64,000 bases of DNA, taken from Minisyncoccota bacterium. GTDB lineage: Bacteria; Patescibacteriota; Minisyncoccia; Phycocordibacterales; JAQTLZ01. Shown piece after piece: positions 29,513-52,452 of the stretch. The notes beneath the pieces were generated by a model. That model was not told where the DNA came from and ran no database searches. It saw only the letters and a program-made list of their open reading frames with translations. Both the position numbers and the translations under genes were made by a program. The DNA is taken from the NCBI GenBank assembly GCA_028714635.1, contig JAQTLZ010000001.1, positions 15,650-79,649 on the forward strand. Reading direction: 5' to 3'. The number at the start of each line of letters is the position of its first letter. Position 1 is the first letter of the stretch.

Positions 29513-29572
29513 ATTAGTAGCTTCGCTTGTCGGTCGAATTATCAGAATCGCTTTTCGCTATTCGTTCAACAG

Positions 29573-30148
29573 TTGTTTCCTCAACCGCGTTACCAGATTA
29601 TTTACGCCGATCCGCCCTGGCGCTACTCGAAGTTCCGTCATTGGCGCGTCATGGGCAAAGGCATCGCTGCCTATTACGAAACACTGACGACCTCGGAAAT
29701 CGCGGCACTGCCAGTTTCCAAAATTGCGGCCGGCGACTGCATCCTGTTTCTGTGGACGACGTTTCCGCGCTTGCCCGATGCTCTGGCCGTGATCGCGGCC
29801 TGGGGCTTCACGTACAAAACGGTGGGATTCACCTGGCTCAAACTCAATGCTCGGAACGGCAAACCGTTCTTCGGCATGGGCCACTACACCCGGAGCAATT
29901 GCGAAGTCTGCCTCATCGGCGTCAAAGGCAGGTCGCTGCGCGTGAGCAACCGCGTCTCGTCGGTGGTCTTTGCTCCCCGGCAGGAGCACAGTCGCAAGCC
30001 GGATGAAGTTCGGGAGCGGATTGTCACGCTCTGCGGCAACCGGCCCCGCATTGAACTGTTCGCCCGTGAACGGGTGTCCGGCTGGGATGCCTGGGGAGAC
30101 GAAGTGAAAAGCGACATTGAACTTGCGCCGCCATCGGAAGCGTCCTGA
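29573..30148 (+). CDS. MT-A70-family N6-adenine DNA methyltransferase (orphan)
   Basis: IIYADPPW motif; TTG start; first gene inside the element's left end. Confidence 0.75.
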   Translation: MFPQPRYQIIYADPPWRYSKFRHWRVMGKGIAAYYETLTTSEIAALPVSKIAAGDCILFLWTTFPRLPDALAVIAAWGFTYKTVGFTWLKLNARNGKPFFGMGHYTRSNCEVCLIGVKGRSLRVSNRVSSVVFAPRQEHSRKPDEVRERIVTLCGNRPRIELFARERVSGWDAWGDEVKSDIELAPPSEAS

Positions 30149-30211
30149 TCGTTATGTCTCTTTTCTCCAACCCTAAATTTTGGTTCCTTACTCATAACGA
30201 GGGGAACGCAT

Positions 30212-30808
30212 TTGTCGCTTTGTCGAAAGCGGAAGGGTTGGGGAAAAGGGAAGCTGGCGCTTCCATGGCCGTGCTTCATTACCATGTATTATTTCATCGT
30301 CTCGAAGGGCCTCCTCGATGCCAAGCACCGCAGAAGGATGGGCGTTGCAGTTTGGGAATTTCTTTGGTGCTTGGACCGCGTGACTAAAATCAATGCAGAT
30401 GGCCTGGGCCTTGTCCTCGGCGGCAAGCCGGTCAACCTCTGCGATTTCACCGGCAGCCTGGGGACTTCAGAGGTCACAGTCAGCCGCAACCTGCAAAAAC
30501 TGGCCCGCTGGAATTATCTCACGCTCGTCCATGCGCCCTACGGCATCGTCATCCAGGTGCCAAAAGCCAAGAAGAGGTTTGTCAAAAATGCTAATCCACA
30601 CGGAATCCACAGGTTTAGCGGAAATGATCGGCCTGGATTTATCAAATCTGCTCAACCTCCCTTCAGAAATGATAAACCTGACTTCAGAAGTGATAAACCT
30701 AATAAGAGAAGTAAGGATGAGAATGAAGATGAGAAAGGGCTTATCGCCATGAATGCACTCATCGAGGAAAGAAAACTGGAGATTTCACGCCTCGTAAAAT
30801 CACTATGA
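30212..30808 (+). CDS. Winged-helix DNA-binding protein (putative replication initiator or regulator) with a Lys/Asp-rich tandem-repeat tail
   Basis: GVAVWEFLWCLDRV...GTSEVTVSRNLQKLARWNYL wHTH-like region; TTG start with a GAGGGG SD, alternative ATG at 30284; C-terminal FRNDKPDFRSDKPNKR tail encoded by tandem 21-bp repeats. Confidence 0.45.
   Translation: MSLCRKRKGWGKGKLALPWPCFITMYYFIVSKGLLDAKHRRRMGVAVWEFLWCLDRVTKINADGLGLVLGGKPVNLCDFTGSLGTSEVTVSRNLQKLARWNYLTLVHAPYGIVIQVPKAKKRFVKNANPHGIHRFSGNDRPGFIKSAQPPFRNDKPDFRSDKPNKRSKDENEDEKGLIAMNALIEERKLEISRLVKSL
30654..30738. repeat. Repeat R1a: two tandem 21-bp units (TTCAGAARTGATAAACCT...) at the 3' end of the wHTH gene; copy of R1b
   Basis: ~90% identical by eye to 58052-58135. 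Confidence 0.7.
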
Positions 30809-31023
30809 CTGAAATTGAACAAATCCAAAATATTATGCTCGCCAAAGCCGTGTACGCCCTGAGCGAGATTCAGCGCACCGTTGGCCGGTTCAAAAACCAG
30901 AAACGCGCGCTCAACCGAATTGAAGCCGTAGCCAGCCGGTCCCTCCACGAGATTGACGTGCTCAAGGAGACGGTTGGCATGAAAATCAGGAACAGGGAAG
31001 GTCTCGGCACGATCAAATTCTGA
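30805..31023 (+). CDS. Hypothetical small protein (72 aa)
   Basis: 4-bp overlap with the upstream gene; its 3' end is duplicated downstream of the giant protease gene. Confidence 0.4.
   Translation: MTEIEQIQNIMLAKAVYALSEIQRTVGRFKNQKRALNRIEAVASRSLHEIDVLKETVGMKIRNREGLGTIKF
30931..31023. repeat. Repeat R2a (~93 bp), 3' end of the small ORF; copy of R2b
   Basis: ~88% identical by eye to 35651-35743. Confidence 0.7.
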
Positions 31024-31198
31024 CCTGTGGTTTTCTGGTTGTCGCTCAAGAGTCACACGAAGCATGTGCCTCACAACTTATTTGAAACCCCCATCCTCGC
31101 GTTCGCGAGAGCGGGGTTTCTTGTCCACATTGTCCCCCTTCCTTCACCGGTAGTGGATGCTGTATACTACATACTGATATTATTTCAATTCGAGAGGC

Positions 31199-34100
31199 AT
31201 GAAAACAATCCACGAGAAACTTCAGAACGGAAGCCAAGCCTACGCCGACTGGCACAACAAGCCGGCGCATCCGTATGTTCATGGAGCGATCTATGTAGCC
31301 GTCCTCTTTTTTGCTATTCAAGCGGTAGCTATCGACACGAATTCTCTTATTGACAGTTATTTTAGCTCAACATCTTTTGTTACAATTGCCGTCCGCTCGC
31401 TTGCCACTAATGTCAAAGCCCTGACAGACAAAGCGGTCTTCCTGGCTGAAGCGTTGCGTTCGTATCCGGAAAATCAAAGACCGGCGCTTTCCGCCGAACT
31501 TGAACAGACTCTCGCGAATCGCTTTGCCGCGCTCTCACGTCTTGCCGACAGCAACTCGCAGAGTTTCCTTTCCTCGATCTTTACGGCGGAACAGAGAGCG
31601 CTCATGCCCGCATCGGTTGCTTCCGCAATAGAGACGCCTGTCAATCCGAATGATACCTATACCTATCTGGTGAAGCATTCTGATGAAGGTCTTTGTGAAT
31701 CTCCGGCGCACTCCGACAATCCCAAAGCTCCTCCGCCTGCCGAAAAGCACTGCGATGCCCGCGGCATTTTCCAAGACCGCTTGAAAGGCAAAGACGGCAA
31801 CATTTTTGAAGCTCATTTTGGGGGCAAGAAACCGCGCCTCGGCGAACAAATCAAAATCAAGAAAGGCCAGAGAGTGGGCCAGCAGATTGTTGTATCGGCA
31901 GATGCCGATGCTACTGAAGTGGTTGCTCCGATAAAGGCGCAGTTGGGCGCAGGTGGCGCAGGCGCAGGCGGGTCAACCTCAAGCATGCCGACGACGGGTG
32001 TTAAAACCGTGCTCTACATGCTCGTCGGTTTTCCCGATGTCGTTGATACCACAGGATCAATTACGGGTACGGTAGGTGGAATACTTGCTCCGGGATTGCC
32101 GGGATCGTCTGGATCGTCACAGGTTAGCGAAGCTCAGGCTATGACTGACGCTCAATCAGAAATGGGAAAGGTGAATCAATTCCTGTCGGATAATTCCCAC
32201 GGTTTGACTTCATTTTCAACGGTCGTCACTCCGCTTCTTGTTTTGCCCAACACCTCAACTTATTATGCGAGCCATACATCCTTCCCATACGGTGATGACC
32301 TGATCCAGGCCGATGCCCGCGCTGCCGCCCTCGCCAAAGGGTATAACTATCTGGATTACACTCTTGATGCCGTCCGTTACAACGGCAGTTACGGCAATTT
32401 CGGCGGCGAAGCATACATTGGCAGCCGAGGCGTGTGGCTCAAGTCATCCCGCTTTACCGTGGCGGCTCATGAATTCGGCCACAACTATGGTCTTTTCCAC
32501 GCCAACACATGGGTTACTACTGATGGGACGACGCTTGGAGCTGGCGCGAATCAAGAGTATGGTGACTTATTCGACAGCATGAGCAGCAGTTCGTTGGGAG
32601 GATATTTCAACGCATTTGAAAAATATTGGTTGCAATGGCTTCCTCCTGCAAACACTACGTCAGTCACCACAAGTGGCACGTATGCTGTCAGTTCCTTCGA
32701 CCAGCCCGCTTTCAGTGCTGGACTCAAATATGCTCTCAAAATTACCAAAGATACCGATCGCGATTATTGGATCGGTTTTCGGCAGGGTTTCCCGGCAAAT
32801 ATCTGGGAGACGAATGGCGCTGAAGTGCTTTGGGATCCTTGGACAAATAGCAACGGCGGCAGCCAGCTTTTGGACACGAACCCTGGCGGTACGAATGGCT
32901 GGAATGACGCCGCACTTGTTGTTGGTCGCACTCTTGCGGATACCAGCGCAGGAATATATATAACACCGATACGTAAAAATCCGGCAAATGGGACAGTCCC
33001 CTCATCAATAGATGTGGTGGTAAATCTCGGCGCATTTTCCGGAAATGTCGCCCCAACCCTTTCTGTGGCGCCAAGCGCGACTTCCATTCCGATGTATCAG
33101 CCTGTTACTTTTACCCTGAACGCAAATGACGGGAACGGGGATGCTTTGGCATACTACTGCGATTTCGGAGACAAAACATTCAGCAACATGAGCGCTGGTG
33201 TTCTTTCTAAGGTATACGTTGCGCCCGGCACATTCACGGTTATGTGTGAAGTTTCCGACATGAAAGGCGGAAAAGCGACAGCGGCAACGAGTCTTACGGT
33301 AACGGCTGCTGCCCCTCTCAACAATATGTTCGCCAATGCTTTTGTTCTCACAGGCTCAGCAGCGAATGCGACCGGCGCGAATAATTACGCTACGAAGGAA
33401 TCCGGCGAACCGACTATCGCCAGCACGATCGGCGGCAAGTCGGTCTGGTGGACGTGGACCGCGCCCGCTTCAGGAGCGACCACCATCGCTCTCGCGGGAA
33501 GCAATTTTGATACGCTCCTCGGCGTCTATACCGGTACGGCAGTCAACGCTCTCACCCTCGTCGCTTCAAATGATGATAATGGAACTTCGCCTCGAAGCAG
33601 GGTTGTCTTTAATGCTACGGCGGGAACGACATACCACATTGCAGTAGATGGATATGGCGGGTCATGGGGAAACATTGCTCTTTCTGTGTCCGGGCCTTCC
33701 GCCACTGTCAATACAGCGCCGACTGTCGCCACTTCCGCCAGCGTTTCCCCAAGTCCTGTGACGGGAACCACCGCTACACTTTCTGCTCTTGGCACTGATG
33801 ATGGGGGAGAATCCGCACTCACCTATACTTGGGCTGTTACGGGCACACCTCCTGGTCCTGTCGTCTTTAGTACAAATGCAACCAATGCCGCAAAGATAAC
33901 CACTGCTACTTTCGACAAAGCCGGTACTTACAACCTCCAAGTTACTGTCAAAGATGCTGGTAATCTATCAGTCACAAGTTCTGTTACGGCAACAGTCAAT
34001 CAAACACTCTCCACTCTTTCTGTCACACCAGCTACGGCAACGGTTTTGACTTCCGGAACGCAACAATTTAGCGCGGTTGCAAAAGACCAGTTTGGAAATC

Positions 34101-35632
34101 TGCTCACCGTGGCGCCCGCCCTCACCTGGGCGGTTTCGGGCGGCGGATCGATCAATTCCGCCGGCCTCTTCACTGCTGGTTCCACCGCGGGCGGGTCGTT
34201 CACGGTCACGGCCACCAGTGGCGCGGTGTCGGGCACAGCCACAGTTACGGTAGGCGCCGTGCCAATTCTCACGACAATTTCCGTGTTCCCAAGCTCCACG
34301 CTGGTCGCGACTAACGGAACCAAGCAGTTTACCGCAACGGCCAAGGATCAGTTTGGTGTTGCGCTTTCACTTCAGCCAACATTCACTTGGAGCGTTACTG
34401 GCGGAGGTACTATTTCTTCCACCGGCCTTTTCACTGCGGGGTCCACTTCAGGCGGGCCTTACACTGTGGCGGCGTCAAGTGGTGGTGTCAGTGGCACGAC
34501 TACTCTCTCGGTCATCGTCATTCCGGTGCTAACGACAATTACCGTTTCTCCTTCCAATCCAACTGTTCAGCCGGGAGGAACCCAACAATTCACCGCGACT
34601 GGAAAAGATCAGAATGGCAGCACTCTCACGTCCCAACCGACATTCACCTGGAGCGTCTCGGGTGGTGGCACGATGAGCGCAAGTGGTCTCTTTACCGCAA
34701 GCGCCACCGCGAAGGGTTCGTACACGGTTACTGCGACAAGCGGCAGCGTTTCTGGAACTGCTTCCGTCAGTGTTCCTGCCGTCCTAAAATCCATCACTCT
34801 TTCTCCTTCCAGCGCTTCAGTGCAGACAAACGGAACACAGCAATTTACAGCCCAAGGTGTTGATCAGACCGGCGCATCCATGACCTTCGCCCCGGTTTGG
34901 ACGGTAAATGGGGGAGGCACGCTCTCTTCGAGCGGCCTCTTCACTGCCGGAGGCACAGCGGGTGGTCCATACACGGTGACCGTCACCAACAATCCTGTTA
35001 CCGCAACCGCCAGCGCTTCTGTCACAATCACCGCGCCAGCTCCTGTTCTCACATCGATCACTCTTTCTCCGATCTCCGCTTCGCTTGTTTCCGGAGCGAC
35101 ACAAACATTTACCGCTACCGCAAAAGATCAAAATGGAACTGCGATGTCTCCACAACCAAGTTTCACTTGGACAGCAACTGGCCAATCATCACTTGCACCG
35201 AGCGGTTCTACAGCGACCTACACAGCGGGCAACACGGCAGGCGCTTCCTTTGGAATAACAGCTTCTTCGGGAGGGAAAAGCGCCACCGCTCCTATTAGTA
35301 TCACGGTGCCTGTGACACCGTCTCCCCCGCCACCAACAGGGGGAGATGTCACTCCGCCTACGGTCAGCTTGAAACCTCCGCCTTCTAATGGTGACATCAT
35401 ACAGAGAAGTACAAGGACTCTTTGGGCCAACGCCTCTGACAATGCAAAAATTGCCAAAGTGGAATTCTACGCCAACACCACTTTGCTTTGCACTGTCAAA
35501 CGCTCCGCCAATTTTTACTGCAATTGGGATCCGACCGGTAGCAGCGTCACCTACAATCTCACGGCAAAAGCCTACGACACGTCGAATAATTCCGCCGTCT
35601 CTCCTGTGGTCACAGTGACGACAGTTCCCTAA
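31199..35632 (+). CDS. Giant secreted/membrane-anchored zinc metalloprotease (HExxH) with PKD, pre-peptidase C-terminal (PPC) and ~12 Big_2 Ig-like repeats
   Basis: N-terminal TM helix; AAHEFGHNYGLFH zincin motif; PKD-like YYCDFGDKTF; PPC-like domain (TTYHIAVDGYGGSWGNIALSVSG); repeated ~85-aa Big_2 units (GLFTAGSTAGGSFTVTATSG...TATVTV). Confidence 0.7.
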   Translation: MKTIHEKLQNGSQAYADWHNKPAHPYVHGAIYVAVLFFAIQAVAIDTNSLIDSYFSSTSFVTIAVRSLATNVKALTDKAVFLAEALRSYPENQRPALSAELEQTLANRFAALSRLADSNSQSFLSSIFTAEQRALMPASVASAIETPVNPNDTYTYLVKHSDEGLCESPAHSDNPKAPPPAEKHCDARGIFQDRLKGKDGNIFEAHFGGKKPRLGEQIKIKKGQRVGQQIVVSADADATEVVAPIKAQLGAGGAGAGGSTSSMPTTGVKTVLYMLVGFPDVVDTTGSITGTVGGILAPGLPGSSGSSQVSEAQAMTDAQSEMGKVNQFLSDNSHGLTSFSTVVTPLLVLPNTSTYYASHTSFPYGDDLIQADARAAALAKGYNYLDYTLDAVRYNGSYGNFGGEAYIGSRGVWLKSSRFTVAAHEFGHNYGLFHANTWVTTDGTTLGAGANQEYGDLFDSMSSSSLGGYFNAFEKYWLQWLPPANTTSVTTSGTYAVSSFDQPAFSAGLKYALKITKDTDRDYWIGFRQGFPANIWETNGAEVLWDPWTNSNGGSQLLDTNPGGTNGWNDAALVVGRTLADTSAGIYITPIRKNPANGTVPSSIDVVVNLGAFSGNVAPTLSVAPSATSIPMYQPVTFTLNANDGNGDALAYYCDFGDKTFSNMSAGVLSKVYVAPGTFTVMCEVSDMKGGKATAATSLTVTAAAPLNNMFANAFVLTGSAANATGANNYATKESGEPTIASTIGGKSVWWTWTAPASGATTIALAGSNFDTLLGVYTGTAVNALTLVASNDDNGTSPRSRVVFNATAGTTYHIAVDGYGGSWGNIALSVSGPSATVNTAPTVATSASVSPSPVTGTTATLSALGTDDGGESALTYTWAVTGTPPGPVVFSTNATNAAKITTATFDKAGTYNLQVTVKDAGNLSVTSSVTATVNQTLSTLSVTPATATVLTSGTQQFSAVAKDQFGNLLTVAPALTWAVSGGGSINSAGLFTAGSTAGGSFTVTATSGAVSGTATVTVGAVPILTTISVFPSSTLVATNGTKQFTATAKDQFGVALSLQPTFTWSVTGGGTISSTGLFTAGSTSGGPYTVAASSGGVSGTTTLSVIVIPVLTTITVSPSNPTVQPGGTQQFTATGKDQNGSTLTSQPTFTWSVSGGGTMSASGLFTASATAKGSYTVTATSGSVSGTASVSVPAVLKSITLSPSSASVQTNGTQQFTAQGVDQTGASMTFAPVWTVNGGGTLSSSGLFTAGGTAGGPYTVTVTNNPVTATASASVTITAPAPVLTSITLSPISASLVSGATQTFTATAKDQNGTAMSPQPSFTWTATGQSSLAPSGSTATYTAGNTAGASFGITASSGGKSATAPISITVPVTPSPPPPTGGDVTPPTVSLKPPPSNGDIIQRSTRTLWANASDNAKIAKVEFYANTTLLCTVKRSANFYCNWDPTGSSVTYNLTAKAYDTSNNSAVSPVVTVTTVP

Positions 35633-35650
35633 CAAGAAGCGCGCCCAAAA

Positions 35651-35743
35651 GCCAGCCAGTCGCTCCACGAGATTGGTGTTCTCAAGGAGACGGTGGGCAT
35701 GAAAATCAGGAACGGGGAAGGACTTGGCACGATCAAATTCTAA
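35651..35743. repeat. Repeat R2b (~93 bp) directly after the protease stop codon
   Basis: Continues in frame after the TAA and encodes ...SLHEIGVLKETVGMKIRNGEGLGTIKF*, homologous to the C-terminus of ORF 30805-31023. Confidence 0.7.
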
Positions 35744-35908
35744 CGCTGGTTTTGCGGCCACCCGGCTGCCTCGAAAAGTGGCTGCCAGTGCCGGCGTGCC
35801 CGGCAGAAAAGTCAGAGAAAGTTTTCATTGCGGGGCTGGTGAACTTGCATATACTCGCCATCACCTAAGCAAGTCGGGGCAGACAACAAGGTGAAAGGAG
35901 GAGGGGTC

Positions 35909-36418
35909 ATGCCGGAAGAAGTTCTCGGCGGGATGTGGGAAAGCATCAAGACAGAGTGGGAATCGGCCCGGCCACAGGTGACGGGGCATTGCACGCTCAT
36001 TGAAGATTTCCAAGCTTCGCCCACTCACTTTTACGGCCTCGTCGAAAAGGCAATTGAGCGCCGCAAGATTCCGGGTCTGCGCATGTCGCATGTCCTGCAT
36101 CGGGAAGGCTGGATCATGTCCGCGGCGCGCGAGTACCTGCGCGCCGAGCGCGGCAAGATTTCGTTTGAAATCTGCGGCGCGCCCTTCGGGACCGGGTTTT
36201 TCGTGTCGTGCCGCATGATCGTCATGCCGGAAAAGAATGGCATCTTCGCCCGGATTTGGAAGTTCCTGTTCAATCCCAACACCTTCTACCAAATGGACGT
36301 TGCCGCCATGTACCAATCGGCAATCGAATCAGCGGTGAAGGAAGCGAAGAACGAATTGACGCAGACGAAACTCTCCGTGCCGGGCCTGCGCACCAGCGCT
36401 GTTCCGGTGCTTGCGTGA
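35909..36418 (+). CDS. Hypothetical protein (170 aa), first gene of a three-gene operon
   Basis: Strong GGAGGAGGGG SD; no recognised family; ends 5 nt before the ATPase start. Confidence 0.4.
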   Translation: MPEEVLGGMWESIKTEWESARPQVTGHCTLIEDFQASPTHFYGLVEKAIERRKIPGLRMSHVLHREGWIMSAAREYLRAERGKISFEICGAPFGTGFFVSCRMIVMPEKNGIFARIWKFLFNPNTFYQMDVAAMYQSAIESAVKEAKNELTQTKLSVPGLRTSAVPVLA

Positions 36419-36423
36419 CGGCC

Positions 36424-39400
36424 ATGAGCGCAAACGAATACGCCCTGGCCCGGCCTCAAGCGCACGGCAGCACCGCCGATTTGGTCGCGAGCGAATTCTC
36501 CCGCTGGCTTGCCTTGGGGCAAGGCACGCGGGAATGGGATTTCCCTGTCTTTATCGAGCCGCCCTACAGTCCGATCATCGTCGCTCCCGCTGTTATCGAG
36601 GACGACGGCAGGCAGCCGACGATTCTCAGCGCTCTGGCGGATACCGTCGGCAACTGGCTGAGTCCGAAAAAGAGACCCGCGCCTAAAGCGAACACGGTCG
36701 TTGCCGGCGATCTCAATTGGCTGGCATTTCCCAATTGCAGCACGCCCGTTGAATTTCAAGCGCTCATTCCTCCGCACATCAGCATCCGCAAGGACAGCTT
36801 CGAGCAATTCTTAATGAGCGTCAGGTACTGCCACTTTCCGCTCTGTTTCGAATTGATCGGCCGCGCGGATTCGATCACGGTTCAACTGGTCGCGCAGCAA
36901 GATGACGTGGCGCACGTCGAACCGCAACTCGCGGCGCACTTTCCGGACATTGTCTTCGCTAAACGCACGGGGCATCTGGAAAAAGTCTGGCAGGAGACGG
37001 AAGGCGAGCATCGCTTTCTTTTTGGGTTCAGCCTGTTGCAGCCGTTTCTCCTGCCGCTCGAATCCTATCGGGGTTTTCCCGTCGATCCGCTCGTTGGCCT
37101 GGCTGGCGCACTTTCCGACATCCGCAAGGACGAGGCCGCCGTCTTCCAAGTGCTCTTTGAACCGGCGCGCAATCCGTGGCTTGAGACGCTGGCTCAAGTC
37201 GCCGAGTTCGCGCCGGAACTCAGCCCGCATATTCGCAAGAAGATTGCGTATCCGTTTTTTGCGGTGGTGGCGCGGCTGGCTTGCAAGGCCGCGAGTGAAG
37301 AGCGCTTGGTGCAATTGCTCAAGAATCTCGACGGCGCGATGCGCGTATTTTCAACCCCTGCTGGAAACGGATTGACCGTGCTTTCCAACAAGGGCTATTC
37401 GAGTGGCCGGCAGGAAATTGATCTGTTACTGCGACAAACGCACCGCAGCGGCATGTTGCTGAACAGCGACGAACTGCTGGGCCTTGCGCATTGGCCGACA
37501 CCCGCGGTGCGCACGCCGAAGCTGGACCGCGCCACGCGCAAGACAAGGCCGGCGCCCACGCTCTGCCTGAATCATGCGTTGACGCTCGGCACGAACAACC
37601 ACAACGGAGAAGACAGCACCGTGACGCTCGCGCCCGCGCAGCGCGTCAAGCACATGCACGTCGTCGGCGCGTCGGGCACCGGCAAGTCAACGTTTCTACT
37701 CAACCTCATCATCCAGGACATTGAAAACGGCGAGGGCGTCGGCGTGCTCGATCCGCATGGCGACCTTGTGGATGAAATTCTCGCCCACATTCCCGCAGAA
37801 CGCCACGACGATGTGGTCCTCGTCGATCCGTCCGATGAAGAATACCCGGTCGGTTTCAATATCCTTTCGGCGCACTCGAATCTCGAAAAGAACCTGCTGG
37901 CTTCGGACCTCGTTTCCGTTTTTCGCCGCCTGTCCACAAGCTGGGGCGATCAAATGACCTCAGTGCTCGGAAACGCCGTGCTCTCGTTTTTGGAAAGCAG
38001 CACTGGCGGCACGCTCTCCGATTTACGGCGGTTTCTGATTGAACCGGGCTTCCGCGCGGAATTTCTTGAAACGGTGCGTGACGAGGAAGTCGTGTATTTC
38101 TGGAAGAAGGAATTTCCGCTCCTCTCCGGCAAGCCGCAAGCATCGCTGTTGACCCGGCTCGATTCCTTCCTGCGCCCCAAGCCGATTCGCCACATGGTTT
38201 GCCAGAAGGAGAACAAGCTCGACTTCGCGAGCATCATGGATTCCAAGAAAATCTTTTTGGCGAAACTCTCGCAAGGATTGATCGGGCAGGAAAACTCATA
38301 CCTGCTTGGCTCGCTGTTCGTCTCGAAATTCCATCAACTTGTCATGGGCCGTCAGGAAGTGCGCCAGTCCGAACGTGAAAACTTCTGGCTCTACCTCGAC
38401 GAATTTCAGAATTTCGTCACCCCGTCGATGGCGGCGATTCTCTCCGGCGCGCGTAAATACCGCCTCGGCCTTATTCTCTCGCACCAGGACATGCACCAAC
38501 TGGTGAGCCGCGATCCCGATGTGGCAAATGCCGTCCTTGCCAACGCCTTTACGCGCGTCTGTTTCCGGCTCGGCGACTCCGACGCGCGGCGCATGACCGA
38601 AGGCTTCTCGAATTTCGATGCTCACGATTTGCAGAGCTTGGGCACCGGCGATGCAATCTGCCGCATTGAGCGTTCCGCCTTCGATTTCAACATGTATACC
38701 GCATTGCCGGAACTCGTTGACGAAGAACTCGCCGAAGAACGGCGGCGGCGCATTCGGGAATTTTCGCGCGCCAAGCACAGCAAGAGGCGGACGGAGCTTG
38801 AGCCGCCGCGAGGCCAGACTCCGGCAGCGCCAGCATTCCCCAAAGCCGAAGATACCACTCCCACGCCAGCGGCGCCGAGGCCCGAACCCGCGCCGCTCCA
38901 AATCGCCAAGTCCACTCCAGGCAAAGGCGGCCACGAGCACAAAGTTTTTCAGCAAGTGCTTTGCGATTGGGCTGGCGATCTCGGCTTTACGGCTGCAATC
39001 GAACAGGAACTTCCGAGCGGACAGGGCAGTGTCGATGTCGAAATCGAAACCGGCTCCGAATCCATCGCCTGCGAAATTTCCGTCACAACCAGTATTGCCG
39101 ATGAACTGAGCAATCTCACGAAATGCCTGACGGCCGGCTACGATCACCTGCTGATGATCTGCACCGATCGCGGCAAACTCGACGCCTTGAAACGCAGTGC
39201 CGCTGCCAAGTTTCCTGCTGACGCGCTTGAGCGGGTCCAGTTTGTGACGCCAACCGAAGCGTTCCAATTCCTGCATAGCTTGATCGACGGCGTCTCAATC
39301 ACGGCGAAAGGCGCGCTGTCAAGTTACGGATGCGACGTGCGCGTAAATTACCCGCCCGCCGCGAGCGCACCTTCCAGCAAGAAAGGCGGCGTGGCGCAAG

Positions 39401-39444
39401 CCGTCAGGAATGCCACCAAGCGTCTTCGCGACGGAAGAAAATAG
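36424..39444 (+). CDS. Large P-loop NTPase of the TraD/VirD4/HerA-FtsK (AAA_10/TraG-D_C-like) class, with a ~430-aa non-membrane N-terminal region and a C-terminal nuclease-like domain
   Basis: Walker A HVVGASGTGKST, VLDPHGD, Walker B LYLDEFQNF, and a LILSHQDMHQL motif; no TM helices. The C-terminal ~150 aa (VDVEIETGSESIACEIS) are acidic and possibly PD-(D/E)xK-like. Confidence 0.55.
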   Translation: MSANEYALARPQAHGSTADLVASEFSRWLALGQGTREWDFPVFIEPPYSPIIVAPAVIEDDGRQPTILSALADTVGNWLSPKKRPAPKANTVVAGDLNWLAFPNCSTPVEFQALIPPHISIRKDSFEQFLMSVRYCHFPLCFELIGRADSITVQLVAQQDDVAHVEPQLAAHFPDIVFAKRTGHLEKVWQETEGEHRFLFGFSLLQPFLLPLESYRGFPVDPLVGLAGALSDIRKDEAAVFQVLFEPARNPWLETLAQVAEFAPELSPHIRKKIAYPFFAVVARLACKAASEERLVQLLKNLDGAMRVFSTPAGNGLTVLSNKGYSSGRQEIDLLLRQTHRSGMLLNSDELLGLAHWPTPAVRTPKLDRATRKTRPAPTLCLNHALTLGTNNHNGEDSTVTLAPAQRVKHMHVVGASGTGKSTFLLNLIIQDIENGEGVGVLDPHGDLVDEILAHIPAERHDDVVLVDPSDEEYPVGFNILSAHSNLEKNLLASDLVSVFRRLSTSWGDQMTSVLGNAVLSFLESSTGGTLSDLRRFLIEPGFRAEFLETVRDEEVVYFWKKEFPLLSGKPQASLLTRLDSFLRPKPIRHMVCQKENKLDFASIMDSKKIFLAKLSQGLIGQENSYLLGSLFVSKFHQLVMGRQEVRQSERENFWLYLDEFQNFVTPSMAAILSGARKYRLGLILSHQDMHQLVSRDPDVANAVLANAFTRVCFRLGDSDARRMTEGFSNFDAHDLQSLGTGDAICRIERSAFDFNMYTALPELVDEELAEERRRRIREFSRAKHSKRRTELEPPRGQTPAAPAFPKAEDTTPTPAAPRPEPAPLQIAKSTPGKGGHEHKVFQQVLCDWAGDLGFTAAIEQELPSGQGSVDVEIETGSESIACEISVTTSIADELSNLTKCLTAGYDHLLMICTDRGKLDALKRSAAAKFPADALERVQFVTPTEAFQFLHSLIDGVSITAKGALSSYGCDVRVNYPPAASAPSSKKGGVAQAVRNATKRLRDGRK

Positions 39445-39455
39445 GTGGTTGCCGC

Positions 39456-40622
39456 ATGTCTCAAACCAACGAGGTCAAACTTTCCAGGCATGTGCCATTC
39501 GGCTATCGGCGCGAACCGGCAGGCGAACTCGTGCCGGACCCCGTCGAGGCTCCCATTCGAAAGGAGCTTTACGAGCTTTTTCTCCGTCATGGCCGCAAAA
39601 AGACAGTCGCCAAATTACTGAACGAAGCTGGCCACCGCACGCGCGACGGGTCGCTTTTTTCAGACGCAACAATCGGCAGGTTGCTCCGCGATCCCATCGT
39701 GACCGGCGCTGCAACCTCGACGTTCAAGATCGAGCCGCTTATTTCGGAAGAAGTTTGGCGGCAGTGCCAGGAATTGCTGCAACATCCCGTTCCGAAAACA
39801 CCGGCACATCTCTTCGCCGGAATCGTCCAGTGCGCGTGTGGCACGAAAATGTACGTGCCAACGAACTCCGACAAATATGTTTGCGCGAACTGCCGGCGAA
39901 AGGTTCCAGCACGTCGTCTTGAAAACATCTTCTTCGACCAGTTCAAAACCTGCTTCCTGGTGCCGCTCGAAACCGGAAGCGAAGGCGGTGAACTGGTCCA
40001 GAATGTTCAAATCTGGCCGCACTTCACGCCTGAAGAGAAACGGCAGGTCGTCGAATCAATGACACAATCGATCGTTGTCGCTGATCGGAGGATCGACATT
40101 AACCTGTATTATTTGCCTTCGGTAAAAGACATGACAAATTGGCAACACGAACAAATTGGCAACAAGTCCGGCGAACGCCAGTCTACGCGCGTCCATGAAA
40201 GTCCGCTGCGGTTCAACGTAGATACCCGTGAACTCCGGCACGGCGAAACGTCATTGACGTACAAGCTCAATGAAACCACCCGCAACTTTCTCACGGTTTT
40301 GGCGCTCAATATCACAAACGGGATACACCTCCCGCTCGAACTCGACCGGCCCTTCGCGGACGGAGCCAGTTGCACAACGCGCAATGCCCTCGATACCCTG
40401 CGTAAACAGATCGGGGCGGTGATCTGCAAGCGCCTCATCAAAACCGAGCGCGGTTCAGCCACAAGGCCCGGCGGCGTCAGGCTTCAGAATGTAGAAATTG
40501 CTGGCGTTGGGAAGCGGGAAATCACTCTCAATCCCGAAGCTGTCCACGCCGCCAAATCCAACCGAACCGGCCAGTCCGCAAGGCAGCGCAAGCCACTTTC
40601 CGGTGAGCATTTTGAGCGTTGA
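39456..40622 (+). CDS. Serine-recombinase paralogue with the recombinase domain and zinc ribbon only (no resolvase catalytic domain)
   Basis: HVPFGYRREP...LVPDPVEAPIRKELYELFL (Recombinase domain) and CACGTKMY...YVCANC zinc beta-ribbon; no N-terminal catalytic Ser domain; AGGTGG SD. Confidence 0.55.
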   Translation: MSQTNEVKLSRHVPFGYRREPAGELVPDPVEAPIRKELYELFLRHGRKKTVAKLLNEAGHRTRDGSLFSDATIGRLLRDPIVTGAATSTFKIEPLISEEVWRQCQELLQHPVPKTPAHLFAGIVQCACGTKMYVPTNSDKYVCANCRRKVPARRLENIFFDQFKTCFLVPLETGSEGGELVQNVQIWPHFTPEEKRQVVESMTQSIVVADRRIDINLYYLPSVKDMTNWQHEQIGNKSGERQSTRVHESPLRFNVDTRELRHGETSLTYKLNETTRNFLTVLALNITNGIHLPLELDRPFADGASCTTRNALDTLRKQIGAVICKRLIKTERGSATRPGGVRLQNVEIAGVGKREITLNPEAVHAAKSNRTGQSARQRKPLSGEHFER

Positions 40623-40706
40623 CCTAGCCGAAGACCGGCGCATCACCGGCGTAAGTCCGGCGTAACACCGATTTTTATATTTTTTAACTCCCTTTCAAAT
40701 CAGGAC

Positions 40707-41120
40707 TTGCGCTTGGCGCCGGACTTCCAGCGAGTGTTTTCCATCAATAGGTATGGGGCGAACATGATTGCTTCGTTGCTCATGCCGCTTTGGAACGCCT
40801 CTGAGGGTCAATCCTCCATGCCGCACTCGCAGTCTCAGCAAATTCCAGCCACAGAAATACAAGAAATCGGCACAGAATCTTTCACAGATTTTACTGGACA
40901 GGATGACGCGGCTCGAGGTAATGTCCCTGTGTCCGCAGGACCGACAAGGCCGCTCGCGTTGAACAGGATTACGGACGAATTGCTCGACGATACGCTGCGG
41001 GTCTGGTCGGGAGCCTACGGCCAAACAATGACCGAAGACGATGGCGTGGAAATCCTGCTCAACGTCAAGCGTCTGGCCGAAGTGCTTATGAAGTCAGGAC
41101 AAAAAGGAGATATGCGATGA
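40707..41120 (+). CDS. Hypothetical protein, 4-bp overlap with the serine recombinase gene
   Basis: TTG start; no recognised family; alternative start at MIASLL. Confidence 0.3.
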   Translation: MRLAPDFQRVFSINRYGANMIASLLMPLWNASEGQSSMPHSQSQQIPATEIQEIGTESFTDFTGQDDAARGNVPVSAGPTRPLALNRITDELLDDTLRVWSGAYGQTMTEDDGVEILLNVKRLAEVLMKSGQKGDMR

Positions 41121-42712
41121 ACGTGATTGTCTGGGCGCGGGTCTCGTCCCGCGAGCAGCGCGAAGGATACTCCCTTGACGCGCAGCTTCGCGCCGCGCGT
41201 GAACGTGCGACAAAGAACGGCTGGACGGTTCTCAAGGAGTTCGTGGTCGCGGAATCGGCCCGGCGTGGTGCCGAGCGGGTGGCTTTCAACGAGATGTTTC
41301 AATGGGTGAAAGCCAACGCCAAACGTGATGGCATCAAAGCAATTCTGAGCCACAAACTGGATCGTGTCTGCCGCAATATGCGCGACGCGGTGCGCTTGCA
41401 AGAACTTGAAGACACCTGCGGCGTGCATCTGGCCTTCGTCGAAAACCAGTTTGGGCCGGGAGCCGCGGGCGCGCTGTCGTTTAACGTCATGGCCGCCGTG
41501 GCTCAGTATTACTCCGACAACCTGCGCAACGAAGTCTTGAAGGGCATGGATGAAAAAGTCCGGCAGGGCTGGCCCACGGGACTTGCGCCGTTCGGATACC
41601 AGAACGTGGAGAACCGCAACGAGCCGGTGGTTCCGCATCCCGTCGAATCCATAGCAGTGGCGCGCATTTTCGAGTTGTACTCGTCTGGCAACTGGACATT
41701 CAAAAGTCTCGGTGACCAGCTTGAGCGGGAGGGCATCATCTACCGTCCAAGCCAGCCGCGCTTTACGTCCTCGGCGCTCTCAAAGATTCTCAACAACCGA
41801 TTCTACATGGGCCAGATTATCCGCCGCGGCCAGGCTTTCCCCGGCAAGTACCGCGCGCTGATTGACCGCAGCGTCTTTGAAGCCTGTCAGCAGTTGCTCC
41901 ACGGCAAGAACCGGCGCACGGGCAATCCCGAAATCATGCTCTCCGGCGGCATCCTGCGCTGCGCGCATTGCGGCCACGCCATCACCGGAGAGTTCATCCG
42001 GCGCAAGCTGAGATGCGGCGGCGTCAATGTCCACACGTACTACAAATGCGGCAATAACAACCAGGCGCCGGAACATCCCAAAGTCCGCTGGCGCGAAGAG
42101 GCTGTTGAAGAAGCGCTCTTGCACGAGTTCCTTGCTCTGAAGCTGCCCACGCCGGAATCGGCGGAGTGGTTCCGAACAGCCTTGCGGGCCGGATTTGCGA
42201 ACGTGGATGAAAACCAGCGCCGCCAAAAGCAAATGTTGGGCAAGCGCACAACTGAATTGGTGAACATGCAGGACCGGTTGTTGAATGGCTATCTGGCTGG
42301 AGCCATTGACGAGGCAGTTTTCAACCGCAAATCCACCGAGTTGAAAGCGCAAGCCGTGGAGACTCAAAGCGCTCTGGAAAAGGCGGATGCGTACGATCCC
42401 GAAGCGGCGGAGCGCGCCCTGTCAGTGTTCGACTTCAGCCAGAATTTGGCCGAGCGCTGGCGCGGTTCGAACTATTCAGTCCGGCGTGAAATCCTGCTCT
42501 GCGTGAGTTCGAACCGGCTCCTTGGCACTACAACTCTTGAACTGCAAAAGAGAAAGCCCTTCGACGCGCTCGCCGAAGATCTCGTTTTGAAGATTGGTCG
42601 GGGCGACTGTACAGACTTCGAACCAACTTCTTTCATTGATTCATTCCTTCGTCCACCCGAACCGCACATTCTAACCGCTGCGCGATTGGAACGGGAGAAC
42701 ACTTTCTGTTAA
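41117..42712 (+). CDS. Large serine recombinase (integrase)
   Basis: N-terminal resolvase domain MNVIVWARVSSREQ...; recombinase domain (GLAPFGYQ); zinc ribbon (CAHCGHAI...YYKCGN); coiled-coil C-terminus. Confidence 0.85.
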   Translation: MNVIVWARVSSREQREGYSLDAQLRAARERATKNGWTVLKEFVVAESARRGAERVAFNEMFQWVKANAKRDGIKAILSHKLDRVCRNMRDAVRLQELEDTCGVHLAFVENQFGPGAAGALSFNVMAAVAQYYSDNLRNEVLKGMDEKVRQGWPTGLAPFGYQNVENRNEPVVPHPVESIAVARIFELYSSGNWTFKSLGDQLEREGIIYRPSQPRFTSSALSKILNNRFYMGQIIRRGQAFPGKYRALIDRSVFEACQQLLHGKNRRTGNPEIMLSGGILRCAHCGHAITGEFIRRKLRCGGVNVHTYYKCGNNNQAPEHPKVRWREEAVEEALLHEFLALKLPTPESAEWFRTALRAGFANVDENQRRQKQMLGKRTTELVNMQDRLLNGYLAGAIDEAVFNRKSTELKAQAVETQSALEKADAYDPEAAERALSVFDFSQNLAERWRGSNYSVRREILLCVSSNRLLGTTTLELQKRKPFDALAEDLVLKIGRGDCTDFEPTSFIDSFLRPPEPHILTAARLERENTFC

Positions 42713-42736: not shown

Positions 42737-43000
42737 TCATTTGAGGTACGCATGCACGATGTCAATCAACTCCGAGGCGGACTCTTTCTGTTTCTGCGAA
42801 CCAGTATCGGAAAGTTGATGAATGTGAGCTTCGATGATCTCCGCCATGAGACCGTTGAGCGCGCCACGGCAAGCCGCCGCGTTCTGGAGAATTTTGAACG
42901 TGTGCCGGTCTTGCGCAAGCATGTTTTCCACGCCGTTAAGCTGTCCCCGGATCCGGCTGATGCGTTGGAGCAGTTTCTTTTTGTGGCGCGGGTCAAGCAT
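42737..43000 (-). CDS. CsoR/RcnR/FrmR-family metal- or formaldehyde-sensing transcriptional repressor
   Basis: LLQRISRIRGQLNGVENM...C...H.H pattern; start taken at the internal Met; AT-rich, lower-GC segment. Confidence 0.55.
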   Translation of the reverse strand: MLDPRHKKKLLQRISRIRGQLNGVENMLAQDRHTFKILQNAAACRGALNGLMAEIIEAHIHQLSDTGSQKQKESASELIDIVHAYLK

Positions 43001-43118
43001 GAACGATATTACAATACACCAGTATAGTATTATCAAGGGCAGAAATCTGTTAAAAAGCAGCGCTTATGCACACCTCTATTCAAGAATTTCTGTTATACTT
43101 GAGGCGTTGTAAATTTAA

Positions 43119-46100
43119 TTGAAATCAATGACGAGAAAGGGCCTGAGTCAGTTTTCCATTGGGATGTCAGCTCTTTTGCTGTTGGCAATTTTCCTTGCTG
43201 CCGGGTCCGTTCTCGCCGTCCCGCCGGATTCACCGTACGCGCCGGGAGAGACACTTGATCCCGCGTGTGCTCCTGGGGAACCGAATTGCACGGTGAGCAC
43301 AATTTCCCCCTGGGGAAGCATTACGGGCACGCTTTCCAACCAAACTGATTTGCAGTCCGCGCTGGACGCGAAGGCATCGACCACCGCGAATATTTCCGGC
43401 TTCACCAACGACATCGGTTATCAAACCGCCGCAAATGTTTCCACGTACGTCACGGGGCTTCCCATTTCAACATTCACAAACGATGCCGGCTTCATCACCA
43501 ATTCTTCTTTGAGCGGGTATGTTCCGTACACGGGCGCCACGGGGAATGTCAATTTGGGCGCAAACAATCTCACAACGTCTGGCACGCTCTCCGCCGCTAA
43601 TCTTTCCGGCGTCAACACCGGAGACCTCACCTTGAGTGACGTAACGGGTCTTTCTCTTTCCGGACAAGTGCTTTCCGTTACCTCTGGCTATGCCATTCCG
43701 CTTACCGCTTCGACCACGAACTGGAACAGCTTCTTAGACACGCCGTCCACCCGTATCAGCGCGGGTACTGGCCTTTCATGGAGCGGGAATACGCTCAATG
43801 CTACAGGCGGTGCCGGCTCCGTCACCTCCGTTGACGCCTCCGGCGGCGCGACCGGCCTTTCCTTCAGCGGCGGCCCGATCACTACATCCGGCACGTTGAC
43901 GCTTTCAGGCATTCTTGGTGTGGGAAGCGGAGGCACGGGAACTTCCACCGCTCCGTCATTCGGTCAGGTTCTCCTCGGCAACAATTCGGGAGGGTATGAT
44001 TTGGTGGCCACTTCTTCCCTCGGATTTAGCGGTGGTCCCATTTTCGCTGACAGCCCTCTCACCGGAGACGGCACATCAGGAAATCACTTAACGATCCCCG
44101 GTCTTTTCATCAATGTTCCGAATAATGTCTATGGAATCGGGGATTCTGCGAATACGTTGGTTGGAAATACCGGAACTGATGTCAATGCACTCGGACCATT
44201 GGCCGCCCAAAGCAACATCGGCAACGATGTCAACGCTTTCGGAGGAAATGCCGCATACCAAAACATCGGGGCGAATGTAAACGCTTTGGGAAACAACGCC
44301 GGGAACGGCAATACTTCCGGCGACGTCAACGCCTTTGGTTCTTCTGCAGGTCAAGGCAACTCTGGCACCTCTCTCAATGCTTTGGGAAGCGGAGCAGGTC
44401 AAGGAAACTCCGGAGGAAACGTCAATGCTTTCGGTTCTGCTGCGGCAAACGGAAACACAGCAAACAATTTGAACGCTTTTGGAAGTGGGGCAGGCCTTTC
44501 CAACACAGGGACAGATGTAAACGCTTTCGGACAGTCTGCTGGATTCTCAAACACCGGTACCAATTCTAACTTCATGGGAAATCTGGCGGGCATAGGTAAT
44601 TCTGGAAACAATGTCAATGCTTTCGGAAATGGAGCTCTTAACAGCAACACCGGCAATGACATCGTTGCCATAGGCAACGGAGCGGGAAGTTTCAACACCT
44701 ACAACAACCTGGCTTTGTTTGGAATTGGCGCCACCGCATCTTCGAGCAATCAGGCACAGTTGGGAACAGACTCAAACCCTCTCGATACCTATATCCACGG
44801 CAACCTCTCTTTCACTGGAGGCTTGTATGACAGTGCTTCTTCACTGGGAACTTCCGGCTATGTCCTTTCCTCTACCGGTTCGCAGGTGCAGTGGGTGGCG
44901 ACCTCAACTCTCGGACTTGGAGGCTCGAGCGGGACGGTGAGTTCTGTAGATGCTTCCGGCGGTACAACAGGACTCACTTTCTCTGGTGGTCCTATTACCA
45001 CTTCAGGCACACTGACGCTTGGCGGGGTTCTGGGAACGGCAAATGGCGGGACGGGAACATCAACCACAGCGAACAACAGCATTTTTGTTACCAATGGTTC
45101 CGGCACACCATCATGGCGCACGACGCTCCCTGCCTTCACCCTCGGCGGAACAGTCACCGGCAACTCCCAAAATCTCACCGGCCTCAATCAACTCACGGTG
45201 ACCGGCGCTACTGCCACCTCCACGTTCTCGACCGGAGGCTTCACCATCGGCGGCAATCAGTTTGTGGTGCAGCAGACTTCGGGAAACATCGGCATCGGCA
45301 CTTCGGTTCCGGGATCGAGATTTCATGTTCTGTCCTCTTTCGGAAATTCATCCAATTCTATTTTCACCACAAATGATTTTGTCAGCGGTTCTACGGGAAG
45401 TGACTTATCAATTAGTTTTGGAGCAACCAGTGGCAATACATCTTCTGTCTTAACCGCCGCAACTGCAGGGGGCAGTTTATTTGGCGCAATGGAATTCGAT
45501 GCAAGCAAGTTTGCATTCATGAACGGCAACGTCGGCGTCGGCACCACTACTCCAGCGACGAAGCTCCACATCCTCGGCACCACCGAACAGCTCCGCCTCG
45601 GCTACGACGCGTCCGACTATGCTTCCTTCACGGTCGGCTCTGACGGCGCGTTTTCTATCACTCCAACAAATAGCGCCACTACTACCGTCACCAACGCGCT
45701 CGTAGCGTCAAACCTCTCTGGCACGAACACGGGAAATGTCACTCTGACAGGAGAAAATTATCTTTCGCTTTCCGGCCAGCAGATTACGGCGAGCGCAATC
45801 AATTTGAGCGGCTCGAACGTGACCGGCACATTGGCGGTCAACAAAGGCGGCACCGGAACCACCACCTTCGGCGGCGCCAACACCCTTCTTTATACCACCG
45901 CCGCCGATGCGCTTTCCTCCATCGCCACCGGCAACAACGGCGTGCTCATCACGTCCTCTGGCGGTGTACCCTCAATTTCTTCAACCCTTCCCGCTGCCGT
46001 GCAGGGCAACATCACCTCGCTTGGCACGCTCACAAGCGGCGTGTGGAACGGTTCGGCAATCGGCCCGACCTATGGCGGCACGGGCCTCACCTCCTACGCA

Positions 46101-51492: not shown

Positions 51493-52452
51493 CTATTTTT
51501 CTTGTGCCGAAGGCTGAGACTGACCGGGGGTGTTGATGGTTTCCAGTTTGGCGGGTTGCGACAACGTGAGTTTCCCGGCCTCCGCCAAAAGCAAGTTGAC
51601 GGCATCGCACGTTCGCTTCAACACGTCCAGGCACGCCTGCATCGGCGCGATGTCCGCTGCTTCGGCATAGCGCTCAATATATTTGAAGCAGCCTCCGCGG
51701 TCGGATTCCTGCTCGAAGCCCAAAGCTTCAAGCAGGACCGCGCCGCCCAATTCGGCAACGGTCTCCGAGCGCCAGTGCTGGCCGCGTTCGATAAGGTGGC
51801 CGAGGCGGTCATCGGCGGCATGAATGAGCTCATGCGCCCATGTGGATAGATTTTTCACCCCAAGGGCGATCTGCTGGCCGCGAACGTACTTGCCCAGCGC
51901 CCCGCCCTCCTTCCCATTAAACGCTTCCACATTCAAACCCCATGCGCGGGCTACGTCGAGGAGCGGCAGAGAATTGATCCACTGTAACACTTCGGGGTCT
52001 GCGGGCGGGATTGCCGCCCCCTCCGTGACTTCGATGGCGAACACTGGCGCGGTTCTCACACCGAAGAGAACCGGCACTTCCTTTTCCTCGCCGGTTTCTT
52101 CATCCTTGACCTTGACGGCTTTGGTCATGGGCACGAGGATATCGAACGATTTTGCGCCTTTCTTCACCGTGCGTTCAACCGCGTTCCACTGCCTCATGCC
52201 GCGAGCATCGTTCGTATTGTTGAGGGCGCAGAGCAACTGATTGCCCCACGACCATGAGCGGCAGGGCACACAGTCTTTCCGGCGCACGAAGATGGGAGCG
52301 ATGGCTTTGGCGACATCGCCCCGCATGAATGCGTCCAGTATCTTTTGGGCGGTCTCTTCCGCCCGTCCGTAGTATTTCACGGACACCTCCTTTCTATTGG
52401 GTGTTAAGTGTGTTGGGAAGAAAATGACCCCGGCGGGGTCATTGAACTGCAA
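51493..52452 (-). CDS. ArdC-like antirestriction protein (ssDNA-binding N-domain plus zincin-like metalloprotease)
   Basis: ArdC_N-like W...N.LL...ARG...W...TVKKGAKSF; C-terminal HELIHA HExxH. Confidence 0.6.
   Translation of the reverse strand: MQFNDPAGVIFFPTHLTPNRKEVSVKYYGRAEETAQKILDAFMRGDVAKAIAPIFVRRKDCVPCRSWSWGNQLLCALNNTNDARGMRQWNAVERTVKKGAKSFDILVPMTKAVKVKDEETGEEKEVPVLFGVRTAPVFAIEVTEGAAIPPADPEVLQWINSLPLLDVARAWGLNVEAFNGKEGGALGKYVRGQQIALGVKNLSTWAHELIHAADDRLGHLIERGQHWRSETVAELGGAVLLEALGFEQESDRGGCFKYIERYAEAADIAPMQACLDVLKRTCDAVNLLLAEAGKLTLSQPAKLETINTPGQSQPSAQEK

Follow-up and report, generated by a model that had tools for sequence, protein, structure and literature searches.

An FtsK/HerA-class ATPase with a nuclease-fold domain, its small partner protein and a putative DNA-binding derivative of a large serine recombinase on an integrated element of a Minisyncoccota bacterium

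The DNA analyzed here, referred to as the window, is a stretch of 64,000 nucleotides (nt) from contig JAQTLZ010000001.1 (assembly GCA_028714635.1, positions 15,650 to 79,649) of a Minisyncoccota bacterium. It carries three intact, co-oriented genes, g1, g2 and g3 (Table 1), which encode a small protein of unassigned function, a large P-loop ATPase with a C-terminal nuclease-fold domain, and a putative DNA-binding protein that derives from a large serine recombinase (LSR) and lacks its catalytic part. An earlier note, written from the nucleotide sequence, had proposed the trio as a candidate novel three-gene module. It is indeed real and intact; it is not an isolated novelty, however, but a derived subclade of a module composed of g1, the ATPase and a cognate LSR that extends across phyla. 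The evidence leans toward coupling of this module with site-specific recombination on a mobile element, and a recombinase-coupled DNA translocase or nuclease acting on the element's own DNA is tentatively put forward as its role. The parts of the module belong to known superfamilies; what stands out most is the association of the motor with an LSR derivative that has neither a catalytic domain nor a coiled coil. No description of the module was found in the literature on DUF8128, on TrwB_AAD_bind and defence, on FtsK-HerA and serine recombinases, or on coupling proteins and nucleases.

Relatives of the g2 ATPase number more than 2,600. The best 120 of these are full-length proteins with 45-57% identity, most of which align end to end at 92-100% query coverage, and g2 is 47-57% identical to the 25 homologues with which it was aligned. 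In a scan using one genome per species, the ATPase was encountered in at least 576 species; the phyla and lineages among the matches listed include Acidobacteriota, Verrucomicrobiota, Planctomycetota, Bacteroidota, Binatia, Nitrospirota, Firmicutes and lineages of the candidate phyla radiation. The same gene order is found in dozens of unrelated genomes. Examination of co-occurrence revealed a g1 homologue upstream of the ATPase and on the same strand in 75 of 75 loci with upstream DNA, the distance being at most 40 nt in 70 of them, and the trio with a g3-type protein at four loci. g1 and the ATPase are the core pair of the module. Full-length ATPase homologues are present in none of 72,556 plasmids of PLSDB and in none of 50,697 phages of INPHARED, and IMG/VR contributes a single one. 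This absence from plasmids and phages fits a role tied to integrative elements.

Linkage of the module to LSRs was evaluated in 67 complete loci, where direct adjacency was defined as an LSR with catalytic domain on the same strand at a gap of at most 450 nt. An LSR directly follows the ATPase in 22 of these loci and lies within 8 kb in 37; counting fragments too, 57 of 80 loci have open reading frames (ORFs) of the LSR family within that distance. The gap between ATPase and LSR can be as short as 10-11 nt (L004, L010, L012), and in many loci a small antisense gene for an XRE-type helix-turn-helix (HTH) protein is located between the two. The ATPase-linked LSRs form one clade and share 40-49% identity with g3 over the DNA-binding domains. 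Pairwise identities at 20 loci are correlated between ATPase and LSR (Mantel r = 0.51, p <= 0.0005), almost to the degree observed between ATPase and g1 (r = 0.62). As judged from these comparisons, the module is frequently linked to, and co-diverging with, one LSR clade.

The product of g3 contains, as had been noticed earlier, only the recombinase domain and the zinc ribbon of an LSR. In Pfam it matches Recombinase (PF07508, E = 2.3e-10) and, below threshold, Zn_ribbon_recom (PF13408, E = 1.8e-3), with no match to the catalytic Resolvase domain (PF00239); the zinc-ribbon residues C126, C128, C143 and C146 are invariant, and weak NCBIfam matches concern XisF and CcrC. The recombinase domain and the four-cysteine zinc ribbon are shared with the integrases of phiC31, Bxb1 and A118 and with XisF and CcrC. 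Unlike these LSRs, g3 possesses neither the catalytic serine domain nor the coiled coil and would, therefore, be capable neither of DNA recombination nor of the usual regulation. The XisF element requires XisH and XisI. Alignment with the cognate LSRs, that is, those following the ATPase in other genomes, places the start of g3 at the equivalent of residue ~157; ~165 N-terminal residues are missing. Three deletions were identified, of the catalytic domain, of 21 amino acids (aa) within the recombinase domain and of the coiled coil, an insertion of ~87 aa in the zinc-ribbon domain. The latter is missing from all five proteins of the g3 clade. These proteins of 369-390 aa are 51-64% identical over their full length and are free of stop codons and frameshifts; in three further loci (L009, L093 and L094) a g3-type protein follows the ATPases closest to that of the window, and the subclade comprises four loci including the window. 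Ratios of nonsynonymous to synonymous substitution rates (dN/dS) lie between 0.14 and 0.23 for g3 and between 0.14 and 0.20 for the ATPase; owing to saturated dS, these values are approximate. Sequence comparison, accordingly, indicates purifying selection on g3 under a constraint similar to that on the ATPase. The C-terminal ~150 aa, which are specific to the clade, retrieved no relatives in Pfam, NCBIfam, PADLOC or a profile search of Protein Data Bank (PDB) sequences. An OmpR/PhoB-type winged helix was considered as a candidate fold for this region; hhalign against PhoB and OmpR sequences gave a probability of only 15%.

The existence of a full LSR two genes downstream of g3 has been borne out by a complete protein of 531 aa, separated from g3 by one gene for 118 aa. 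It matches Resolvase (E = 2.7e-20), Recombinase and Zn_ribbon_recom in Pfam, as well as the NCBIfam models for XisF and Ccr recombinases below threshold (E ~1e-23), and presumably serves the element as its functional integrase. The former description of g3 as a paralogue needs correction, in that it is not a close paralogue of this downstream LSR. Identity between the two is 29% over the recombinase domain (E = 4e-6), as against 43% (E = 7e-52) over residues 169-383, with a weaker second match at 429-497, to the 649-aa LSR that directly follows the ATPase in locus L004. By this measure, g3 descends from the LSR clade normally following this ATPase and not from the LSR two genes downstream. What comes after g3 differs among loci, and in three of the four it is a different recombinase, probably so in one of the three: in the window the unrelated complete LSR, in L093 a partial serine recombinase, and in L009, behind an HTH_17 gene, a 578-aa protein without Pfam match, whose N-terminus may be tyrosine-recombinase-like. 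The pattern is read as a displacement of the integrase function in the g3 subclade, the DNA-binding half of the former integrase having been selectively kept.

A further subclade of the ATPases carries, in place of the basic tail, a C-terminal HTH_17 domain of the excisionase/AlpA type (examples are P0040, P0078, P0098 and P0114 as well as loci L007, L014, L016, L026, L030 and L033). An adjacent LSR is found at none of five HTH_17-fused loci in the species set, and a tyrosine integrase is located 2-3 kb away in three of six. This pattern hints at a motor in need of a DNA-binding module of the site-specific recombination type.

The g2 protein is built from three domains and a basic tail. For the N-terminal domain a local Pfam scan returned nothing, and neither did NCBIfam or PADLOC; the precomputed Pfam assignment is DUF8128. 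A search of 1.84 billion representatives yielded 944 clusters at 50% identity. DUF8128 is not promiscuous, since it always takes the N-terminal position, in full-length proteins of ~1000-1100 aa, shorter matches looking truncated; as far as sequences tell, it is confined to the N-terminus of the g2 family. The ATPase core matches TrwB_AAD_bind (E = 2e-10, residues 399-723) and TraG-D_C (E = 6e-6) in Pfam, and Walker A (GASGTGKS, G415-S422) and Walker B (DE, D659-E660) are invariant across 26 homologues, in agreement with the motifs reported before. The NCBIfam models of TraD, CD1115 and TrbC score 16-40 bits, far below their cut-offs of 250-800 bits. Among PADLOC profiles, mad8 is matched at E = 4e-18, and there are weak matches to DndH and HerA, all restricted to the ATPase core. 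In sequence-profile comparison, the solved proteins nearest to it are TrwB (E = 4e-6), DotL and DptH. The long N-terminal region had been described as soluble and the protein as devoid of a membrane anchor. This agrees with the absence of any predicted transmembrane segment from g2, whose Kyte-Doolittle maximum over 19 residues is 1.38; the maximum does not exceed 1.79, borderline at best, across the 26 homologues. The N-terminal anchor typical of type IV coupling proteins is lacking in g2.

The suspected PD-(D/E)xK-like nature of the g2 C-terminus was pursued by AlphaFold2 modelling of the C-terminal 181 residues from a 20-sequence alignment. In the model, the block-mean predicted local distance difference test score exceeds 90 for modelled residues ~11-130, and the topology is alpha-beta-beta-beta-alpha-beta. 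On the strength of this model, the PD-(D/E)xK core fold is confirmed. The catalytic motif is partly canonical and the active site is putative. E860, D871, E884 and K900 are invariant in 26 homologues, with D871 and E884 situated on strands 2 and 3; the canonical lysine position is occupied by serine (E884-I-S886) in the window copy and in the family consensus alike, and the invariant K900 resides on the helix following strand 3. Three of 20 homologues have a weak Pfam match to REase-ARP. Structural matches of the domain include the defence proteins Upx, Can2, HamA and Hna. A match to 2okf is no better than that to many other nuclease-fold proteins and is considered a lead only, not evidence. 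The profile search of PDB sequences with this domain gave chance-level matches or none.

The predicted fold of g1 is a generic alpha/beta sandwich with a five-stranded sheet plus helices. It has no match in Pfam, NCBIfam or PADLOC, a fold search of predicted viral structures remained at TM-scores of up to 0.39, and none of the 54 homologues found carries an informative name or a Pfam domain. When it was tested whether g1 is related to part of DUF8128, no homology was detectable. The homologues fall into two size classes. In the long forms (~205-255 aa), an insert that separates the sheet from the last helix contains one or two strongly hydrophobic segments; the short forms (~160-185 aa) are without it. 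Judged by hydrophobicity, the membrane anchor missing from the ATPase would sit on g1 in most relatives. g1 of the window is a short form without hydrophobic anchor, lacking the insert of ~65 aa found in many homologues. Because short forms are common across the family, the missing insert represents a common variant and not decay.

In the scheme tentatively favoured here, the ATPase would form a ring-shaped motor on double-stranded DNA, like other ATPases of the FtsK, HerA and coupling-protein type, and would be brought to a specific site on the element DNA by a recombinase-type DNA-binding protein. This targeting module would be a full LSR in most relatives, g3 in the present case, and the fused excisionase-type HTH in the subclade without LSR. 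The motor would then translocate, cut or remodel the element DNA in step with excision, integration or transfer, and g1 would tether or regulate it; in most relatives this would take place at the membrane, and in the subclade of the window in the cytoplasm. The logic would be akin to that of FtsK on XerCD-dif, or to that of a recombination-directionality or processing factor, and unlike that of a classical conjugative coupling protein. The likeness to FtsK with XerCD-dif, which concerns the logic only, consists of membership in the same FtsK/HerA superfamily, of the genetic tie to a site-specific recombinase and of a tether, provided by g1 in most relatives. In contrast to FtsK-XerCD, the recombinase of the module is of the serine and not of the tyrosine type, the motor has a nuclease-fold domain and a tether encoded by a gene of its own, and no winged helix similar to FtsK-gamma was detected in the C-terminal AlphaFold2 model of the g2 tail; the functional tie between motor and recombinase is putative. 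Streptomyces TraB is a single FtsK-like motor that moves double-stranded DNA of integrative elements after recognising short repeats. Like TraB, g2 is a single large FtsK/HerA-class motor on an integrative element together with an integrase and a replication/relaxase-type protein, and it appears to need a sequence-specific DNA-binding module. It differs from TraB in that its ATPase belongs to another clade, the motor is without transmembrane domain or winged helix and contains a nuclease-fold domain, and the hosts are mostly diderm.

This scheme is supported by the strict pairing of g1 and ATPase, the linkage to and co-divergence with LSRs, the kept DNA-binding half of an LSR, the HTH_17 fusions, the context of the element and the absence from plasmids and phages. 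Several points weigh against it. A contact of the ATPase with an LSR or with g3 is hypothetical, and the co-divergence could be explained by shared inheritance on one element. Nor is the recombinase obligatory, since 26 of the 62 ATPases without HTH fusion have no LSR within 8 kb. As to HTH_17 fusion versus LSR adjacency, the contrast is drawn from n = 5 loci and is not statistically significant. In 28 loci a second, small (~390-460 aa) coupling-protein-like ATPase lies within 8 kb, often directly upstream of g1 or beside Replic_Relax (L014, L019, L024, L027, L049 and L062 among them). The nuclease-fold domain would be superfluous in a scheme resembling FtsK/Xer and is more typical of restriction-like defence. 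That the module stands for a previously unrecognised class of recombinase-coupled motor is unlikely; in such a class, the DNA-binding half of a serine recombinase would direct a coupling-protein-like ring ATPase with a nuclease fold, which would govern directionality, export the element or process it once excised.

The main rival reading, considered not very likely, is a two-gene defence or exclusion cargo beside an integrase. The ring ATPase would move on invading DNA, the fused PD-(D/E)xK domain would cut it, and g1 would be a membrane sensor or regulator, the LSR linkage merely reflecting the integrase-proximal position common for defence cargo. A motor-plus-nuclease design is typical of restriction-like immunity, and the combination of an FtsK/HerA-class ATPase with a nuclease fold is shared with HerA-NurA, HerA-DUF4297, DptH/DndH of the Dnd system and mad8 of MADS, in line with the PADLOC match to mad8, the weak ones to DndH and HerA, and DptH among the nearest solved relatives. 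The structural matches to Upx, Can2, HamA and Hna, the invariant acidic residues of the putative active site, the spread of the module over many phyla and the loci lacking a nearby LSR would likewise suit defence. Type I restriction-modification, AAA_15/21, nSTAND, AbiEii, ParE and Mrr genes occur in some neighbourhoods, and DNA methyltransferases are frequent immediate neighbours in other genomes. On the other hand, the g2 matches to the HerA, Dnd and MADS modules are limited to the ATPase core, the partner genes of those modules are absent, their nuclease fold is separate and not fused, and linkage to an LSR is not known from them. No complete system model of PADLOC v2.0 was matched, g1 and g3 are without matches to defence families, and the recurrent neighbours are genes of mobile-element backbones rather than defence genes. 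The mad2 matches in the neighbourhood give no evidence of a MADS system, since these genes are ordinary N6 methyltransferases. A free-standing cargo would not be expected to be linked to, and to co-diverge with, one LSR clade, nor to show excisionase-type HTH fusions or an LSR DNA-binding half maintained by selection. The canonical catalytic lysine position, moreover, holds serine.

Less probable still, and improbable on the whole, is a split type IV coupling protein, in which g1 would be the anchor and the ATPase would pass the DNA bound by the relaxase on to a helper type IV secretion system. TrwB of R388, VirD4, TraD and DotL have the same P-loop ATPase core, their families provide the best Pfam and NCBIfam matches, and g2 is likewise encoded on a mobile element; the long g1 homologues with their one- or two-helix hydrophobic insert and the presence of Replic_Relax in the same elements, including that of the window, would also agree with such a role. 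However, the NCBIfam scores of 38-40 bits compare with cut-offs of 250-650 bits, a transmembrane domain is absent from the ATPase and from g1 of this subclade, and DUF8128 and the nuclease-fold domain are foreign to coupling proteins. Mating-pair-formation or secretion genes were found neither among the scanned genes of the island nor among the recurrent neighbours, full-length homologues are missing from sequenced plasmids, and Replic_Relax elements often have the separate small coupling-protein-like ATPase adjacent or near; the island of the window has none. The split coupling-protein reading founders on the missing anchor, the extra domains, the lack of secretion genes among the genes scanned and the absence from plasmids. 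The earlier statement that this is not a standard conjugative coupling-protein arrangement is upheld. Decay, finally, would imply that g1 lost its membrane segment, that g3 is a 5'-truncated LSR pseudogene and that the trio is non-functional. The truncations of g1 and g3 described above would be compatible with it; the commonness of short g1 forms, the end-to-end alignment of the ATPase (93-100% coverage for nearly all matches listed) and the recurrence of the g3 form in five proteins from four loci, with a conserved new C-terminal domain, intact reading frames and low dN/dS, contradict it. A disrupted remnant is, consequently, very improbable and has been rejected as largely refuted.

Turning to the layout of the locus, the spacing of 5 nt between g1 and g2 and of 11 nt between g2 and g3 is as tight as first reported. 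The strong Shine-Dalgarno sequences claimed for all three genes hold for g1 alone (AAGGAGGAGG); that of g3 is decent (AGGTGG) and that of g2 is weak, wherefore translation of g2 is probably coupled to that of g1. The 118-aa ORF has no match in Pfam, NCBIfam or PADLOC and no homologue among 92 related loci. In the intergenic region preceding it, an inverted repeat could be a putative operator or binding site. A promoter and terminator scan found sites not above chance expectation.

Table 1. Features of the module and of the surrounding element; positions refer to the window unless a locus is named
Feature	Position	Strand	Remarks
MT-A70-family DNA methyltransferase gene	29573-30148		Left island edge
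Genes for 174-aa and 72-aa proteins	30284-31023	+	68% (E = 1e-88) and 47% (E = 8e-20) identity to L094 genes
95-nt direct repeat	30930-31024, 35650-35744	+	Copies 89% identical; brackets 1477-aa gene
1477-aa PKD/Big_2 surface-protein gene	31199-35632		Separates 174-aa and 72-aa genes from g1
g1	35909-36418	+	169 aa; ORF and Shine-Dalgarno sequence confirmed; partner protein of unassigned function
g2	36424-39444	+	1006 aa; DUF8128, P-loop ATPase, nuclease-fold domain and basic tail
g2 N-terminal domain, DUF8128 (PF26449), residues 1-395	36424-37608	+	Precomputed Pfam assignment
g2 P-loop ATPase, TrwB/VirD4/TraD type, residues 399-723	37618-38592	+	Pfam TrwB_AAD_bind
g2 C-terminal PD-(D/E)xK-fold domain (predicted), residues ~835-955	38926-39288	+	AlphaFold2; basic tail to 39444
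g3	39456-40622	+	388 aa; putative LSR-derived DNA-binding protein; Recombinase domain, 4-Cys zinc ribbon and clade-specific C-terminal domain of ~150 aa (Pfam, alignment)
Inverted repeat	40630-40727	.	Three (G)AAG(A/T)CCGGCG copies, two direct and one inverted, around AT-rich stretch; intergenic between g3 and 118-aa ORF
118-aa acidic ORF	40764-41120	+	ORF reading; overlaps LSR start codon by 4 nt
Complete LSR, 531 aa	41117-42712	+	Resolvase, Recombinase and Zn ribbon
CsoR-type metal-sensing repressor gene	42737-43036	-	Immediately after LSR
1597-aa repeat-rich protein gene	43119-47912		Island; looks like cargo
1130-aa protein gene, PATR autotransporter-type repeats	47970-51362		Island; looks like cargo
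ArdC-N-like, DnaG-like primase, 264-aa protein and Replic_Relax genes	51493-55706	-	Backbone genes recurring near the module in other phyla
Replic_Relax gene	54744-55706	-	~15 kb from module
Truncated comM, example in L012	14561-15664		Position within L012
Truncated comM, example in L049	12621-13679		Position within L049

The pair of g1 and ATPase is located in integrated mobile elements throughout. In the window, the module lies inside a high-GC island (~29.5-56.4 kb, i.e., ~27 kb with 52-66% GC) between flanks of ~40% GC with gatB and the gene for glyceraldehyde-3-phosphate dehydrogenase (GAPDH), and the backbone gene set of the island is the same as at other loci; three very large proteins of the surface type are also encoded in the island. 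Among the 80 loci, the recurrent neighbours are Replic_Relax, a DnaG-like primase, RadC, a Cas4-like PDDEXK_1 nuclease, a SWIM protein, tyrosine integrases, DNA methyltransferases and ArdC. In 15-17 loci, the 8 kb that follow the ATPase contain a truncated comM (Mg-chelatase-like). In ~7 of these it begins right behind the LSR, at a distance of 1.5-1.65 kb from the ATPase, which would place the module at the end of the element; the recurrence of comM suggests a preferred insertion site of the element family. Direct repeats of more than 10 nt common to both island borders were not found in the window. An independent Logan assembly of run SRR22315509 contains a contig of 12,496 nt that is 100% identical to positions 29556-42051. 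Its left end coincides exactly with the GC shift, 44 nt past the GAPDH stop codon, and because of this the left island border could be a branch point of the assembly graph, representing either a variable insertion or a chimeric join. Upstream of g1, the order of genes differs from that in L094, where the homologues of the 174-aa and 72-aa genes directly precede g1. The 1477-aa surface-protein gene found in between in the window looks like a later insertion, as it is missing from the L094 order and is bracketed by the 95-nt repeat, which corresponds to the 3' end of the 72-aa gene.

The pair of g1 and ATPase is among the more widespread uncharacterised modules of mobile elements. Serine integrases are an enzyme family in heavy use for genome engineering, for which the motor would represent a new control or processing factor if it cooperates with the integrase next to it; a role of the module in defence would, in turn, add a new type of motor-nuclease. 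Should the reading as a recombinase-coupled motor be true, phyla with few known conjugation systems, including those of the candidate phyla radiation, would have their own route of mobility for integrative elements, and g3 would be the first serine integrase turned into a pure targeting subunit. The g3 clade is a natural dissection, which poses, in directly testable form, the question of how a motor makes use of the DNA-binding half of an integrase.

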